DNA of 15,792 nucleotides from a virus: the UHGV virus genome UHGV-1805464, one strand, 5' to 3'. Of this stretch, positions 1 through 15,792 are shown in pieces (the stretch's first letter is position 1; every line of letters begins with the position of its first letter). The position numbers and the translations under genes were made by a program. Below the pieces are notes generated by a model. That model was not told where the DNA came from. It saw only the letters and a list, made by a program, of their open reading frames with translations, and did no database searches.

Positions 1-309
1 GTTCGCCCGATGTACAGCCTGACGAAAGATGGCTGGATCATGGTTGTGATGGGGTTCACCGGGAAAGCTGCTGCGGCAATCAAGGAGAGCTATATCGCAG
101 CATTCAACTGGATGGCAGAGCAACTGAGCCGCCGCATGGCAATTGGCGAAGAAATGCAGCACCGCTACGCCATCAAAGAAACACGCTCAAAGCTGAAAGG
201 TACGATCGGCAGTCGGTTAATGAACGAACGGAAGAAAGAGAAGCGTGTCCTGGCTGTCGAGCATGAATACATCTTGCAGGTGACACAGCCTGAACTGCTG
301 ATTAATTGA
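1..309 (+). CDS. phage regulatory protein, Rha/antirepressor-like C-terminal region (5'-partial, runs off the window start)
   Basis: Frame is open from nt 1 (no stop in 1-9) to TGA at 307-309. The motif GFTGKAAAAIKESYIAAFNWMAEQ resembles the C-terminal segment of Rha/Ant-type phage regulatory proteins (recalled, not searched). It lies upstream of the terminase genes, as in P22-like phages. Confidence 0.4.
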   Translation, partial: VRPMYSLTKDGWIMVVMGFTGKAAAAIKESYIAAFNWMAEQLSRRMAIGEEMQHRYAIKETRSKLKGTIGSRLMNERKKEKRVLAVEHEYILQVTQPELLIN

Positions 310-11202: not shown

Positions 11203-12558
11203 ATGGCTACTTGGCAAGGAACAAACGGCGGATTGTTGGCTGGTATCGGCGGCGTAAACTCAAACGCTCCGAGCGTAAATGACATCGGCAATACGCTTCA
11301 GCTTATCAGGCAGAACAATGATATTGAGCGTTCAGGCGCTAACAATGTTGGGCTGACTGCTTTGCAAGGTCTTTCAGGTATTGCGGGTGTTTTTCAGCAG
11401 GAAAAGCAGGCTCAGCGGCAGAAAGAATTTCAGCAGGCGTACGCTAATGCTTATGCGTCTGGTGATCGCGGTGCTTTGCGTCAGTTGGCTACTCAATATC
11501 CAGACCAGATTGAATCCGTTCGTAAAGGCATGGGATTCATTGATGAAGAGCAGCGTAATTCTATCGGCACCTTAGCGGCTGGCGCACGCCTTGCGTCATC
11601 GTCTCCAGAAGCAATGCAATCATGGCTGCAAAACAACGCCAAGGAACTGACTCGCGTCGGTGTTGACCCTAATAACGTTGCTCAGATGTATCAGCAGAAC
11701 CCTTCAGGGTTTGGTGAGTTTGTTGATCACCTTGGGATGGCTGCTCTCGGTCCGATTGACTACTTCAATGTTCAGGACAAGATGGCTGGTCGTGAGATTG
11801 ACCGAGGCAGGCTGGCAGAGACAATCCGCAGCAATCAGGCCGGAGAGGCGCTAACAGCACGAGGTCAGAACATCACGATGCGCGGGCAGGATTTGGCAAT
11901 GCAGCGAGCGTCAACAAGAGGAACTGCTGGGAATGATGAGCGTACAGTTCAGTTATCAGATGGCAGAACTGTAACTGTCGGCGGGAAGCTTCATGGCGCT
12001 GGGGCTAATGCGTTCTACGAAGGCATCGACAACGAGGGGAATATGGTTCGCGTTCCTGCCAGTTCAATCGCAGCGCCTGCAACATCGTCTGCATCAGCAC
12101 AAAACTATGCCATGAAGAAGGATATCGACGCGATCGCAAATGCAGACGCTTCTGCTCTCGATTTCATGACAGGAATGACAGGCGGTGCAGGTAATCCAGC
12201 AATTGGTGCTGATGTTCGCAGCCGATTAACAGGAAAAGAGCAGCGCCAGTTATATAACTCAGCACAACGGATTCAGGGCAGAATGCAGAATCAGGGTGTG
12301 GCGGCAGCAAGGGACATGGGTGCCAGTGGTATTAACACTGTTGCAGAAGCGAAGATGTATTTTCAGGGGATGCCGCAGGTTGACTATTCAAGCCCGGAGG
12401 CTATGCAGCAGTCGATTCGTGAGATTCAGGAATACACCAACAATTACAACCAACAATATAACGTTAATGTTGGTAAATCTCAGCGGCATCAATCTCAACC
12501 TGCACAGGTATCACAGCCAGCAGCCAGCAGTAACTTTTCTTCACTATGGGGTGATTAA
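11203..12558 (+). CDS. ejection protein, P22 gp20-like
   Basis: 451 aa (P22 gp20 is about 471 aa). AAGGGG Shine-Dalgarno 5 nt upstream of the ATG. It sits between the gp7-like and gp16-like genes; stop overlaps the gp16 start (TAATG). Confidence 0.75.
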
Positions 12559-14555
12559 TGGCTAAAGCATGGAAAGATGTTATCGCCTCTCCACAGTATC
12601 AGGCGTTAGCACCAGAACAAAAAGCGCAGGCTCAGGAGCAATACTTCAATGAAGTCGTGGCCCCGCAAGCCGGAGAAAATGCAGAGCAGGCTAAGCAAGC
12701 TTTCTATGCTACCTATCCATTGCCATCTGTGCAGCCAGTGGAGACACAACAACCAGAAGCACAGCAACAACCACAGCAAAGTGGGTTTATGTCTGATCTT
12801 GGTGAAGCAGTAAAAGAGACTGGTCGTGGACTGGTGCAGGCTGGCGTGAACGTGGCAAACATACCTGCATCAGTTGCCGATGCTGTAACAAGCGCGGCGG
12901 CATGGGCTGGCGGTAAACTCGGCATTGGCGATGGTACATATCAACCAGCGCCACGAGTAACAACGCAGGGGTTAGAGCAGGACTTTGGTCTTCAGCAAGG
13001 CGCGCTCACTCCACAAACGACAGAGGGAAGGGTATTTGCTGAAGCATTGCCTTACCTCACTCCTGCTGGCGTTGAGAGAGCGGCAGCACAGGCACCAACA
13101 CTTGCTGGTCGAATTGCTCAGGGGGCAACACGACTTCTCGCAGAAAACGCAGTTGGATCACTTGCTGCAAATAGTGCGAAAGATGATGCGGAAGCACTCG
13201 CCACCGATTTAGGCGTTGGTGTGCTGGCTGGCGGTGCTATTAACGCTGCCGGACGTGGATTAGGTGCTGCTTATCGTGGCGTTCGTGGTGCTATTGCGCC
13301 AGAAGCGCAGCAGGCTATCAGATTTGCAGAGCGTGAAGGAGTTCCTCTGCACACCACAGACCTGTTACAGCCTACTTCCCGCGTCGGGAAAATGGCGCAG
13401 ACTACAGCAGAAAATATCCCCCTGGCTGGCACAAGCGGAATGAGAGCAACGCAACAGGAAGCGAGAAGCCAGTTGGTGCAGAGATTTGCTGATAAATTCG
13501 GTGAGTATGATCCAGCTGTTGTTATTGACAGCCTTAAAGCGAAAACATCAGGAATTCGTCGTGCTGCAGGGAACCGTCTTGAGCAGGTTCAGAATGCTAT
13601 GGCTGGAGTAAACATTCAGCCTGCGCGAGCAATTCAGCAGATTGATACAGAAATATCTAACCTGCAGAAGCTTGGTAAGGTTGCTGATAACGAGACTATT
13701 TCAAAACTTCAGTCATATCGTGATGAGCTTGTTCGCAATGCTGGTCCTGATGGTCCGGTAAATCTGGATCTGAAGCAATTAAGCGACCTGCGCAGCCAGT
13801 TCAGAATGGACGTGAAGGGTGAGCGACCAGTGTTACCAAACCGTTCCGATGCCGCCATTCAGCGCGTTTACAAGGCGATGACAGACGATATCAATGGTGC
13901 CATTGGTCAGAATCTTGGCAACGATACTCTCCGTAAATATCAGCAGGCCAATGCCGTCTACGCTGACGAAGCGGCGAAACTAAAGAATACCAGGCTGAAG
14001 AATGTTCTCATGAAAGGCGACCTGACGCCGGAAGTTGTCAACAACATACTATTCAGCAAGAACAAATCTGAAATTAAGGCTCTGTATAACTCAGTTGGTC
14101 GTGTTGGTAGGGTGCAAATGCGCAATGGCATCATTGGAAAGGCGATGGAGAAATCAGGTGGTTCCCCTGACCAGTTCCTTCGGCAGCTTAACATCATGCA
14201 AAACCAGACTGGAATAATATTTAAGGGGCAGGATGCTGCTTATCTGAAAGGATTGAAAAACTACCTGCAATCCACGCAGCAGGCTGCAAAATCGGCAGTA
14301 ACAACACCAACAGGGCAGCAAACCATCCCGTTCATTATCGGATATGGGACGGCAATGAACCCGGCGACAACTGGCGCAGCGGTAAGCTACGGACTTCTTA
14401 CTCGCGCCTATGAGAGCGAGCCATTCAGAAATGCAATGCTCCGAATGGCAAACACCCCACGCGGATCAACAGCGTTTGAGAAAGCCATGCAGCAGGCGCA
14501 AAAGGCCATTAACGCCCTGACTCAAGGTGCCAAGTCTGATGCGTTGTCAGAATAG
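12558..14555 (+). CDS. ejection protein, P22 gp16-like
   Basis: 665 aa, the last large gene of the structural block before the immI-like region (P22 gp16 is about 609 aa). GGGGTGA Shine-Dalgarno upstream. The call rests on synteny and size; ejection proteins are known to be variable. Confidence 0.75.
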   Translation: MAKAWKDVIASPQYQALAPEQKAQAQEQYFNEVVAPQAGENAEQAKQAFYATYPLPSVQPVETQQPEAQQQPQQSGFMSDLGEAVKETGRGLVQAGVNVANIPASVADAVTSAAAWAGGKLGIGDGTYQPAPRVTTQGLEQDFGLQQGALTPQTTEGRVFAEALPYLTPAGVERAAAQAPTLAGRIAQGATRLLAENAVGSLAANSAKDDAEALATDLGVGVLAGGAINAAGRGLGAAYRGVRGAIAPEAQQAIRFAEREGVPLHTTDLLQPTSRVGKMAQTTAENIPLAGTSGMRATQQEARSQLVQRFADKFGEYDPAVVIDSLKAKTSGIRRAAGNRLEQVQNAMAGVNIQPARAIQQIDTEISNLQKLGKVADNETISKLQSYRDELVRNAGPDGPVNLDLKQLSDLRSQFRMDVKGERPVLPNRSDAAIQRVYKAMTDDINGAIGQNLGNDTLRKYQQANAVYADEAAKLKNTRLKNVLMKGDLTPEVVNNILFSKNKSEIKALYNSVGRVGRVQMRNGIIGKAMEKSGGSPDQFLRQLNIMQNQTGIIFKGQDAAYLKGLKNYLQSTQQAAKSAVTTPTGQQTIPFIIGYGTAMNPATTGAAVSYGLLTRAYESEPFRNAMLRMANTPRGSTAFEKAMQQAQKAINALTQGAKSDALSE

Positions 14556-14624
14556 CTTCGCAAACACCAGGAACGTGCAAAAACCAAATATGTAGAACGC
14601 AATATTCAGCATATCTCTTTGCAT
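14547..14624 (-). CDS. possible 25-aa hydrophobic membrane peptide (MQRDMLNIAFYIFGFCTFLVFAKLF)
   Basis: Minus-strand ATG at 14624-14622 is preceded by a strong GGAGGA Shine-Dalgarno (14633-14628); stop TGA is at 14549-14547. It lies 20 nt downstream of mnt on the same strand, and its last 9 nt overlap the gp16 3' end convergently. It is too short for the ORF track, so it is predicted only from a manual read. Confidence 0.25.
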   Translation of the reverse strand: MQRDMLNIAFYIFGFCTFLVFAKLF

Positions 14625-14644
14625 AAATCCTCCGTAACTGATAG

Positions 14645-14905
14645 TTAGCTGCTGTCTTTTTTATATAGCTCCTTGAGCGTATCAAAGACAATTTTCTTAA
14701 CCATCTCAGATTGTTGTTCTGCCATACGCTCTGCATCGTCAATGTAAACAGATGCAGAGCTTTGTTTAGCCAATGATTCTTCAATCGCTGCAATTATCTC
14801 TGAGTTCAGCGACCTGTTATTCATCTTCGCACGCTGTTTAATTTTCGCGTGAAGTTCATGCGGAAGTCTCAAGTGAAACTGCGCCTCGTCGTATTTGCTG
14901 TACAT
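14645..14905 (-). CDS. mnt: Mnt-like ribbon-helix-helix repressor (Arc/MetJ family)
   Basis: 86 aa from the minus-strand ATG at 14905-14903: MYSKYDEAQFHLRLPHELHAKIKQRAKMNNRSLNSEIIAAIEESL...DAERMAEQQSEMVKKIVFDTLKELYKKDSS. The C-terminal half closely matches recalled P22 Mnt (DAERLADEQSELVKKMVFDTLKDLYKK) and the N-terminal RHH segment is related. The 219-aa ORF-track call is an artefactual upstream extension. Confidence 0.85.
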   Translation of the reverse strand: MYSKYDEAQFHLRLPHELHAKIKQRAKMNNRSLNSEIIAAIEESLAKQSSASVYIDDAERMAEQQSEMVKKIVFDTLKELYKKDSS

Positions 14906-15040
14906 CCTTGATGCCTCACCAGTTGGGTGGAATGGCATCGTAAAACCTACTGTACAAATCAACAATCGCACCGTTTCGGTATGTAACAAATTCCAACCGT
15001 AGCCATGCTGCGGCGATTCCTTGTATCTGGAGCAAATTAA
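14906..15040. promoter_or_regulatory. divergent control region between mnt and the tailspike gene (candidate promoters and Mnt operator)
   Basis: 135-bp AT-richer intergenic spacer between the divergent mnt (-) and tailspike (+) starts. It contains an imperfect inverted repeat, CACCAGTTGGGTG, at about 14917-14929 next to the mnt start. GGAG (15025-15028) lies about 12 nt upstream of the tailspike ATG. No promoter hexamers could be assigned confidently. Confidence 0.35.
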
Positions 15041-15679
15041 ATGACAGACATTACAGCCAATGTGATTGTATCTATGCCTTCGCAACTCTTCACTATGGCT
15101 CGTTCTTTTAAAGCCGTAGCCAATGGAAAAATTTATATCGGTAAAATTGACACTGACCCGGTAAATCCTGAAAACCAGATTCGGGTTTATGTGGAAAACG
15201 AAGACGGTTCTCACGTTCCTGTTTCGCAACCAATTATCATTAACGCTGCTGGTTATCCTGTATATAACGGGCAGATTGCCAAGTTCGTAACTGTGCAAGG
15301 CCATTCTATGGCTGTTTATGATGCATACGGTGCTCAGCAGTTTTATTTTCCGAATGTTCTGAAGTACGATCCTGACAGATTGCGACAGGATTTAGCGCTT
15401 CCAACAGGCGCTGAGCTTGTAGGCGTGCAACCACAAGGAAATCTTTCGCAAGTCATTCAGTTTGTATCTCCAGAGCAGTTTGGCGCCATCGGAGATGGTA
15501 CGGTTCATCCATTATCTGAGCGTTATGCGACTCTTGCAGCAGCGCAGGCTGTATACCCATTCGTAACATCTCTGACCCAGACAATTGACTGGGCTGCATG
15601 CCAGTTGGCAGAAAACCTTAACAGGAAGGTTAGGCCCATTCATGTTGCCAAGTTTAAAAAATATCACCTTGGTGACTAA
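15041..15679 (+). CDS. tailspike protein, truncated: P22 gp9-type head-binding N-terminal domain plus the start of a receptor-binding domain (212 aa)
   Basis: [11 protein letters not shown]...[27 protein letters not shown]...VENEDGSHV...IINAAG...[13 protein letters not shown]...NVLKYDPD matches the recalled P22 tailspike N-terminal domain. Residues around 150-195 ([29 protein letters not shown]...IDWAACQ) look like the beginning of a beta-helix receptor-binding domain, but the frame stops at TAA 15677-15679. Confidence 0.8.
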
Positions 15680-15681
15680 TG

Positions 15682-15713
15682 CCAGTCAGTTAAGCAACTG
15701 ACTGGCTCTTTTT
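15682..15713 (+). terminator. strong intrinsic terminator 2 nt after the tailspike stop
   Basis: Perfect 10-bp stem CCAGTCAGTT (15682-15691) / AACTGACTGG (15696-15705) with a 4-nt loop AAGC, followed by CTC and a T5 run (15709-15713). Confidence 0.8.
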
Positions 15714-15792
15714 CGGGGCTGTGGGGTATTTCCAGGGCCTCTCCTTTACCACTCTCGGGAAGGCCCTTTCCCTTCTTGTCGGTAATTTCACA

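Follow-up and report, generated by a model that had tools for sequence, protein, structure and literature searches.

An mnt gene standing alone between gene 16 and the tailspike gene

The window analysed here, the whole 15,792-nucleotide stretch of the virus genome UHGV-1805464, was recognised from its open reading frames (ORFs) and from profile searches as late-operon DNA from a P22-like prophage (Lederbergvirus). The subject of this work is the interval at 14556-15040, which carries a homologue of the P22 repressor gene mnt together with its upstream control region. The gene is encoded between homologues of gene 16 and of the tailspike gene, in the orientation opposite to that of the late operon. 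Its start codon diverges from that of the tailspike gene across 135 bp (spacer 14906-15040, starts at 14905 and 15041), and its stop codon is separated from the end of gene 16 at 14555 by 89 bp without an ORF. The program-made ORF list runs the mnt frame out to 15304; the start was set at 14905 by homology and by a GAGG motif. Because the 86-residue product matches both Pfam families expected of Mnt (Arc, PF03869, E=6.5e-15, residues 7-49; Repressor_Mnt, PF11423, E=2e-15, residues 57-82) and both solved Mnt structures (1MNT, the ribbon-helix-helix (RHH) domain, E=1.3e-19; 1QEY, the C-terminal helix, E=6.5e-9), it is a complete two-domain Mnt-type repressor. The gene and the features assigned to its control region are as follows.

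14645-14905, minus strand: mnt homologue, 86 amino acids, RHH N-terminal domain and Mnt C-terminal tetramerisation helix; stop codon at 14645-14647
14910-14939, no strand assigned: extended inverted repeat GATGCC-TCACC-AGTT-GGGTGG-AAT-GGCATC, reaching from the predicted Pmnt -10 through the predicted start to the mnt Shine-Dalgarno sequence
14914-14917, minus strand: mnt Shine-Dalgarno sequence GAGG, 8 nt upstream of the ATG, read from the sequence
14937-14942, minus strand: predicted Pmnt -10, TACGAT, in the top leftward hit of the spacer (score 8.0), matching the annotated P22 Pmnt -10 in position
14960-14965, minus strand: predicted Pmnt -35, TTGTTG, 17 bp from the -10; predicted transcription start near 14930
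14968-14982, no strand assigned: dyad GCACCGTTTCGGTAT, the predicted Mnt operator, placed as the annotated mnt operator is in P22

The remaining immI genes of P22 could not be found. With tblastn, no homologue of P22 Ant, Arc or SieA was detected in the window (every E value above 3), and orf59a, the operator O-arc and, by sequence prediction, the promoter Pant are likewise absent from the interval, whose 135-bp spacer is too short for a 53-codon arc gene. Neither sar RNA nor any other Rfam family was detected in 14300-15300, the identical search recovering sar in P22. The Pfam and Protein Data Bank matches and the tblastn and Rfam searches thus bear out the sequence-only reading of this locus, in which an Mnt homologue lies between gene 16 and gene 9 while arc, ant and sieA are missing, and the divergent 135-bp arrangement that it described also stands. 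A role for the protein as the RHH antitoxin of a toxin-antitoxin pair was considered and rejected, the HicB/FitA-like Pfam matches being weak (E about 1e-6) and attributable to the shared fold; the ORF list of the window gave no adjoining ORF on the mnt strand that could be a toxin gene.

Orphan mnt loci form two large classes

About 330 Mnt loci were fetched and sorted by the N-terminal beta-strand of the encoded protein. Both arc and ant were present at all 20 loci of the P22 class (strand PHFNFRM), and neither was present at any of the 63 loci of the ST160/Gally class (PQFNLRL), in which mnt and the tailspike gene are separated by 135-148 bp, or by about 420 bp where the spacer carries an insert. 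The class to which the window belongs (AQFHLRL) comprises well over 150 loci, none with an adjoining arc or ant, with a spacer mostly of 121 bp and sometimes of 129-137 bp. In none of about 155 orphan-class loci did ant adjoin mnt. All 63 ST160/Gally loci and essentially all window-class loci fall within a distance of 121-148 bp, the longer spacers being due to HNH endonuclease genes inserted at the tailspike 5' end. Divergent spacers taken from annotated genomes measured 135 bp in VSe13, ST160 and E. coli 81EVA and 146 bp in Gally; that of Sf101 measured 121 bp by homology. The comparison with other P22-like genomes that the sequence-only reading had proposed therefore reveals a recurrent layout. 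The arrangement is not a special case: a divergent mnt 121-148 bp from the tailspike gene is usual in the two large orphan classes and has been published (PMC2629481, PMC8022706).

More than 200 viral contigs carry the cassette, as do at least 127 complete E. coli genomes (at least 80% coverage of a 485-bp query), further genomes having the 121-bp variant, and it is present in the viable phages Sf101, IME10, VSe13, ST160 and Gally. Homologues of Ant, Arc and SieA were not found in the complete Sf101 and IME10 genomes either.

A predicted leftward promoter is retained upstream of mnt

A consensus promoter and terminator scan of 14400-15300 returned nothing in the spacer on either strand. We therefore report scores from a weighted sigma-70 scorer whose hexamer frequencies follow published compilations, so that the scores are approximate. 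It recovered the annotated P22 promoters Pant (TTGACA-17-TATATT, 15.5) and Pmnt (TTGAGA-17-TATCAT, 13.1) at their correct sites, and by chance a score of 8 or more arises about 0.08 times, and one of 4 or more about 1.2 times, per 130 nt. A leftward promoter was predicted at the Pmnt position in every orphan class, with scores of 8.0 for the window (TTGTTG-17-TACGAT), 9.3 for ST160 (TTGTGG-17-TATGAT) and 10.5 for Gally (TTGAGG-17-TAAGAT), the -35 hexamers being the homologues of P22 TTGAGA. Over haplotypes, the leftward score had a median of 8.0 in the window class and lay at 9.3-10.5 in the ST160 class. The GAGG preceding mnt was unchanged across 60 haplotypes except for one variant at 14914.

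Rightward, toward the tailspike gene, no sigma-70-like promoter rose above background, the best scores being 4.0 in the window, at most 5.7 in 72 window-class haplotypes and at most 6.1 in 30 ST160-class haplotypes. At the positions of the P22 Pant hexamers (TTGACA and TATATT) the window reads ATGGCA and CAAATC, and E. coli loci that keep arc and ant have an obvious rightward TTGACT-17-TACTAT. We infer from these alignments and scores that the orphan cassettes probably retained the Pmnt position and lost the Pant-type promoter.

The predicted operator co-varies with the Mnt beta-strand

In the P22 record the mnt operator lies just past the Pmnt -35, with the core GGTCCACGGTGGACC. The window dyad at 14968-14982 likewise abuts the predicted -35, its centre at about -45 from the predicted mnt start, which is the geometry of P22. 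The dyad changes symmetrically from class to class, reading GGTCCAC-N-GTGGACC in the P22 class, AGACCAC-N-GTGGTCT in the ST160/Gally class and GTACC-N5-GGTA in the window class. At positions 3/13, P22 has T/A where both other classes have A/T; at positions 2/14, the window class has T/A where P22 and ST160 have G/C; and the CC...GG core is constant across all three. The 7-bp arms of the ST160/Gally dyad are nearly invariant over the 63 loci around a variable centre base (A in 21, T in 14, G in 16, C in 8). Relatives of the window class read GTACC-(A/G)TTT(C/T/A)-GGTA(T/C), one locus (L010) having the perfect form GTACCATTTTGGTAC, and the TACC/GGTA cores are almost invariant in 161 haplotypes.

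The contact residues of P22 Mnt, which we take from the Sauer and Susskind literature to be Arg2, His6, Asn8 and Arg10, shift in parallel with the dyad: His6 becomes Gln between P22 and ST160, and the window class also has Asn8 replaced by His and Arg2 by Tyr. Three of the four beta-strand contacts thus differ between the window and P22 (Tyr/Gln/His/Arg in the window protein), and the P22 dyad is absent from the window. Mnt is said, after Knight and Sauer and after Youderian and colleagues, to recognise its operator through the N-terminal strand, with which these paired shifts agree. Because its position matches that of O-mnt in P22 and because it co-varies symmetrically with the beta-strand across three classes, the dyad at 14968-14982 is a likelier operator than the repeat at 14917-14929 and is taken as the probable one. 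The P22, ST160 and window types would then be three natural, co-varying classes of Mnt protein and operator.

The dyad is present once per complete genome in Sf101 and IME10. Exact matches to the 16-mer operator sequence in IMG/VR numbered at least 119. Of the matches listed, 105 fall within the cassette, 104 of them beside mnt and the last at the edge of a contig. The 14 other matches listed lie on unrelated environmental contigs without a homologue of Mnt, Arc or Ant; they were rejected as operators and treated as chance.

The sequence-only reading had correctly noticed that the DNA-contacting N-terminal residues are unlike those of P22 Mnt, and its suggestion of a diverged operator specificity is supported by the beta-strand differences. 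It had also named the imperfect repeat CACC-AGTTG-GGTG (14917-14929) as the only candidate operator. That repeat exists, and as sole candidate it has to give way, since the dyad at 14968-14982 fits better. Its position differs from that of the P22 operator, and on its own, with 4-bp arms, it is at chance level. It is, however, the inner part of the larger repeat formed by GATGCC (14910-14915) and GGCATC (14934-14939), and this whole element is nearly invariant within the class (mean diversity about 0.016 versus 0.088 at synonymous sites). Counterparts with partly compensatory inner arms occur as GTCC/GGAC in L010, CACTT/AAGTG in ST160 and CACT/AGTG in P22; two pairs are broken in the Gally-type counterpart. 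Folded as RNA, the repeat yields a hairpin of -12.7 kcal/mol on the mnt strand and of -14.9 kcal/mol on the late strand. The compensatory changes partly fit an RNA hairpin in the mnt leader; against it stand the broken pairs of the Gally type and the outer arms, which would lie upstream of the predicted start. The element could form a stem-loop at the 5' end of the mnt mRNA or a structure in late-operon RNA, or it could be a second site for protein binding.

mnt and its control region are conserved and move as a unit

Among 55 distinct alleles of window-class mnt, the ratio of nonsynonymous to synonymous diversity (pN/pS) was 0.16 (pS 0.088, pN 0.014), and only two copies, L012 and L054, were visibly broken, nearly all of roughly 250 being intact. 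Diversity in the spacer was about 0.02-0.03, with values of about 0.016 for 14906-14941 and 0.026 for 14968-14982, where synonymous sites reach 0.088, so that the Pmnt region, the Shine-Dalgarno sequence and the operator are all better conserved than synonymous sites. With this pN/pS and this low diversity of the mnt-proximal spacer, mnt is under purifying selection and is conserved rather than decaying.

An alignment of 38 distinct spacers showed the mnt-proximal ~78 bp (14906-14983) joined to two unrelated tailspike leaders, namely the P22-type "boundary sequence" present in the window and a different leader in the 121-bp type, the junction falling directly after 14983. These ~78 bp are thus part of the mnt module. 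At the other end, the ~70 nt following gene 16 (14556-14625) are shared at 95-96% identity with prophages that lack mnt, for example L374. Since this left-hand stretch also occurs without mnt and the right-hand junction lies after 14983, the comparison delimits a mobile unit of about 360 bp (roughly 14626-14987), composed of mnt and its upstream control region; the gene moves as a mosaic unit together with about 80 bp of DNA upstream of it.

Flanking genes and state of the prophage copy

The gene order in the window is a cut Rha-like gene followed by genes for terminase, portal, scaffold, coat, tail accessory proteins and gp7/gp20/gp16, and then the tailspike gene; its nearest relatives are E. 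coli prophages (95-97% identity) and the phages IME10 and Sf101. The features flanking the cassette are as follows.

12558-14555, plus strand: gene 16-type DNA ejection protein, a 665-aa ORF; PHROG 770 'DNA transfer protein', E=1e-237
14556-14625, no strand assigned: trailer of the gene 16 module, at whose end lies the left mosaic boundary of the mnt cassette
14986-15040, plus strand: P22-type tailspike leader ('boundary sequence') containing the hairpin CCGTAGCCATGCTGCGG (14997-15013) and the ribosome-binding site GGAG
15041-15676, plus strand: 5' part of the tailspike gene, 212 codons that encode the head-binding domain and the first part of the receptor-binding domain; Head_binding, E=2e-67
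15677-15792, no strand assigned: end of an IS4 element, whose terminal repeat supplies the tailspike stop codon with its first bases (TAA); the window ends within IS4

Gene 16, whose counterpart in relatives is annotated as belonging to the P22-gp16 family, is the final late-operon gene before the cassette. The tailspike leader of the window is near-identical to that of P22 gene 9 and is part of the tailspike module, not of the mnt module; in the 121-bp spacer type an unrelated leader takes its place, with the mnt-proximal ~78 bp unchanged. The boundary sequence can fold into a 7-bp hairpin (CCGTAGC-CAT-GCTGCGG), and in P22 two copies of it (L003, 4541-4568 and 4650-4683) flank the region after the ant terminator. 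It marks the mosaic joint, and it could act in recombination or as an RNA element.

Because IS4 cuts the tailspike gene after codon 212 (junction 15676/15677), the prophage, to judge from this truncation, cannot make a functional tailspike; the same allele is intact in E. coli EC2 (659 aa; L294, 2662-4641). The window copy is also the only one among the 161 haplotypes with a T-to-C change at 14969, in the left half-site of the operator, and the sole other half-site variant, L012, has a broken mnt. The IS4 insertion and this unique operator change suggest that the window copy has begun to decay although its mnt ORF is intact.

At the start of the window (10-309) lies the cut gene of a Rha-like regulator (Pfam Phage_pRha; PHROG 518). 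Members of the Rha-type family are sometimes termed anti-repressors. No Mnt-type dyad was found near the Rha-like homologue of Sf101.

Variants and annotation of related loci

Spacers of 414-728 bp were inspected for hidden arc or ant genes, and what they contain instead are genes for HNH homing endonucleases, which sit a few codons inside the tailspike gene. These AP2-type HNH inserts lie on the opposite strand and leave a new tailspike start downstream (L009, L053, L057, L090, L374); insertion at the tailspike 5' end recurs in about 13 relatives and also in mnt-less prophages. Some window-class loci, namely JEP4 (L005) and L303-L312, carry, about 2 kb from mnt toward gene 16, a separate module with genes for a C2-like repressor and for Arc-like, Rha and KilA proteins. 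This module is convergent with mnt and has no Mnt dyad; in relatives of the VSe13/JEP4 type, no copy of the operator was found near the Arc-like, Rha or KilA genes. Another immI type, seen in L375 (E. coli rl0044) and L158, encodes an Mnt-like protein with an NPQVNLRLP strand together with Arc and Ant; its rightward promoter, TTGACT-17-TACTAT, is strong, and where the dyad would be it has the direct repeats ATGCGTACC.

In RefSeq, Mnt homologues (NC_002371 of P22, NC_027398 of Sf101, NC_014900 of ST160 and others) are named "partition protein ATPase", a name derived from phrog_795. The mnt ORF of Sf101 is annotated 11 codons too long, and that of IME10 is not annotated.

Relation to known immI and moron loci

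The window agrees with P22 immI in its location between gene 16 and the tailspike gene, in its leftward mnt, in a two-domain Mnt (50% identity, the C-terminal helix almost identical), in a leftward promoter at the same place and in a 15-bp dyad abutting the -35; P22, however, also has Pant, O-arc, arc, sar, ant, sieA and orf59a, all of which the window lacks. The phages L, ST64T, ST104, SE1 and ST160 (PMC2629481, PMC8022706) share with the window an orphan divergent mnt, a 135-bp spacer, the absence of arc and ant, and a Pmnt-like promoter kept where Pant was lost. They differ in that one further gene, whose function is unknown, separates gene 16 from mnt, and in belonging to the PQFNLRL class with its AGACCAC-N-GTGGTCT dyad. 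Shigella phage Sf101 and E. coli phage IME10 carry the same cassette: their Mnt is 96.5-97.7% identical, their operator is the same and no other gene lies between gene 16 and the tailspike gene, the differences being a 121-bp spacer, a different tailspike leader and intact tailspike genes. Gally, of E. coli LF82, also has an orphan mnt divergent from the tailspike gene, 146 bp away, but represents a sister specificity class and has two moron genes between gene 16 and mnt. Gally Mnt is the only orphan Mnt with both expression and knockout data.

The gene 16-tailspike interval was termed the "ant moron" by Villafane et al. 2008 (PMC2629481), and mnt-only forms have been published for phages L, ST64T and ST104 (PMC2629481, PMC8022706), phage L being described in this way by Zaworski et al. 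2020 (PMC8022706); the function of mnt-only morons is stated there as unknown (PMC2629481, PMC8022706). The window interval is a non-morphogenetic insert that contains mnt without arc or ant and lacks only the extra gene of the published type. It is thus the smallest form of the variable mnt-only ant moron of P22-like phages. The arrangement is of a known kind and is the same as in the published Sf101 and IME10 genomes, where it is unannotated or mislabelled.

Discussion

We rate as slightly better than an even bet the proposal that the locus is a self-contained Pmnt-operator-mnt cassette and that the tailspike gene is fed by read-through from the late operon. Under this proposal mnt would be transcribed leftward from the Pmnt homologue (-35 at 14965-14960, -10 at 14942-14937, start near 14930), and the Mnt tetramer would bind the predicted dyad at 14968-14982, against the -35, as at O-mnt in P22. 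With Pant, arc, sar and ant all gone, Mnt would have no promoter but its own to act on in cis, and would therefore autoregulate. The tailspike gene would have no promoter of its own, and late-operon transcription would pass through the antisense mnt gene and the Mnt-bound operator.

Several points weigh against this proposal. The window-class dyad is weakly palindromic, symmetric at just 4-5 of the 7 arm positions, and at three loci with a P22-type strand, in a different operon layout, a dyad of the P22 type is missing within 400 bp. Owing to a 2-bp deletion, the predicted Pmnt hexamers of the common 121-bp spacer type are just 15 bp apart, and a simple sigma-70 matrix would miss promoters that use other sigma factors or depend on activators. 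Vershon and colleagues reportedly found in 1987 that P22 Mnt bound at the same position favours Pmnt rather than repressing it, so the sign of any autoregulation is unclear. Moreover, self-regulation alone offers selection nothing obvious to act on, yet both the gene and its operator are conserved, and some output is therefore missing from the picture; a cis effect on read-through, a non-canonical tailspike promoter and trans targets on other phages or in the host remain open as candidates. Finally, in macrophages the tailspike gene of Gally is induced about 20-fold (log2 fold change 4.42) together with mnt, gene 16 staying at background (PMC9928086), and a tailspike gene can therefore be transcribed independently of the upstream late genes.

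This co-induction, seen in a prophage of the sister class, speaks for an unlikely alternative, close to the suggestion of the sequence-only reading that Mnt gates a promoter feeding the tailspike gene: with arc and ant lost, the tailspike gene would have been fused to a promoter derived from Pant, and this dedicated promoter would be switched directly by Mnt bound in the spacer. A conserved operator 59-73 bp upstream of the tailspike start calls for some output in cis, and Mnt and Arc have been suggested to influence tailspike dosage in P22 (PMC2629481). The spacers themselves speak otherwise, since rightward scores reach at most 6.1 in the 102 orphan haplotypes, compared with 15.5 for P22 Pant, the consensus scan found no promoter there, and the Pant hexamers of P22 are replaced in the window. 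A module boundary separates the operator from the tailspike leader, and how far the operator lies from the start codon depends on which leader is present. The Gally data could also be explained by read-through from GALLYPH_14, a highly expressed upstream moron gene on the tailspike strand that has no counterpart in the window. We therefore do not uphold promoter gating by Mnt as it was first put forward. Rather unlikely, too, is that Mnt acts as a guard in trans, silencing promoters with the same operator elsewhere, such as the ant promoter of superinfecting or co-resident P22-like phages, or a host gene. The prophage's own repressor would thereby be protected, and the operator in cis would merely set the level of Mnt. 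P22 Mnt does act in trans in holding ant off in lysogens (PMC2629481), the gene and its operator are under selection without an evident cis target, and transcription of the orphan mnt of Gally responds to conditions, being at background level in LB and 40-fold up in macrophages (Misson et al. 2023, PMC9928086). However, neither the ~330 Mnt loci nor the at least 119 operator matches, among those listed, include an arc-ant cassette with a window- or ST160-class Mnt or operator, and a second copy of the operator is missing from the loci that have Arc-like, Rha or KilA genes at a distance of ~2 kb.

The sequence-only reading had also allowed for a relic regulator without a target. As a decaying immI remnant without present function, the locus would accord with the unchanged survival in macrophages of hosts whose Gally mnt had been deleted (PMC9928086; no phenotype in the assay used), with the lack of mnt expression in Kapi1 (PMC12922286), with the few broken copies (L012, L054) and with the operator mutation of the window copy in a defective prophage. 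Selection on the family tells a different story: the pN/pS of 0.16 over 55 alleles, the invariant operator arms, the conservation of promoter, Shine-Dalgarno sequence and operator beyond synonymous sites, the matching dyad retained in each of two independent specificity classes, and the occurrence of the cassette both in viable phages and in 127 or more complete E. coli genomes all argue against decay. We regard this explanation as highly improbable, and for the family as a whole it is already disfavoured. Of the sequence-only reading, then, the observation is confirmed and the interpretation partly supported.

Orphan mnt has been noted since 2008 without an assigned role, and the present analysis names a 15-bp candidate operator for it and predicts a leftward promoter, with no promoter of the Pant type directed at the tailspike gene. 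New here, all from computation, are the reassignment of the predicted operator to 14968-14982, the probable retention of Pmnt with loss of Pant, the purifying selection and the three co-varying classes. The window itself is ordinary, a common cassette in a prophage whose tailspike gene was destroyed by IS4. Across hundreds of prophages of E. coli, Shigella and Salmonella, on the other hand, selection maintains the cassette, and in P22-like phages the interval between gene 16 and the tailspike gene is the one hypervariable "moron" site that the late operon has. It is conceivable, though we hold it doubtful, that the orphan cassette is a selected, condition-responsive prophage regulator unrelated to antirepressor control, acting either by setting tailspike expression, independently of the late operon and through a non-canonical promoter or a block to transcription at the operator, or in trans on other phages or host genes. 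If that were true, the three protein-operator classes of P22, ST160 and the window would amount to a ready-made recognition code for ribbon-helix-helix repressors.

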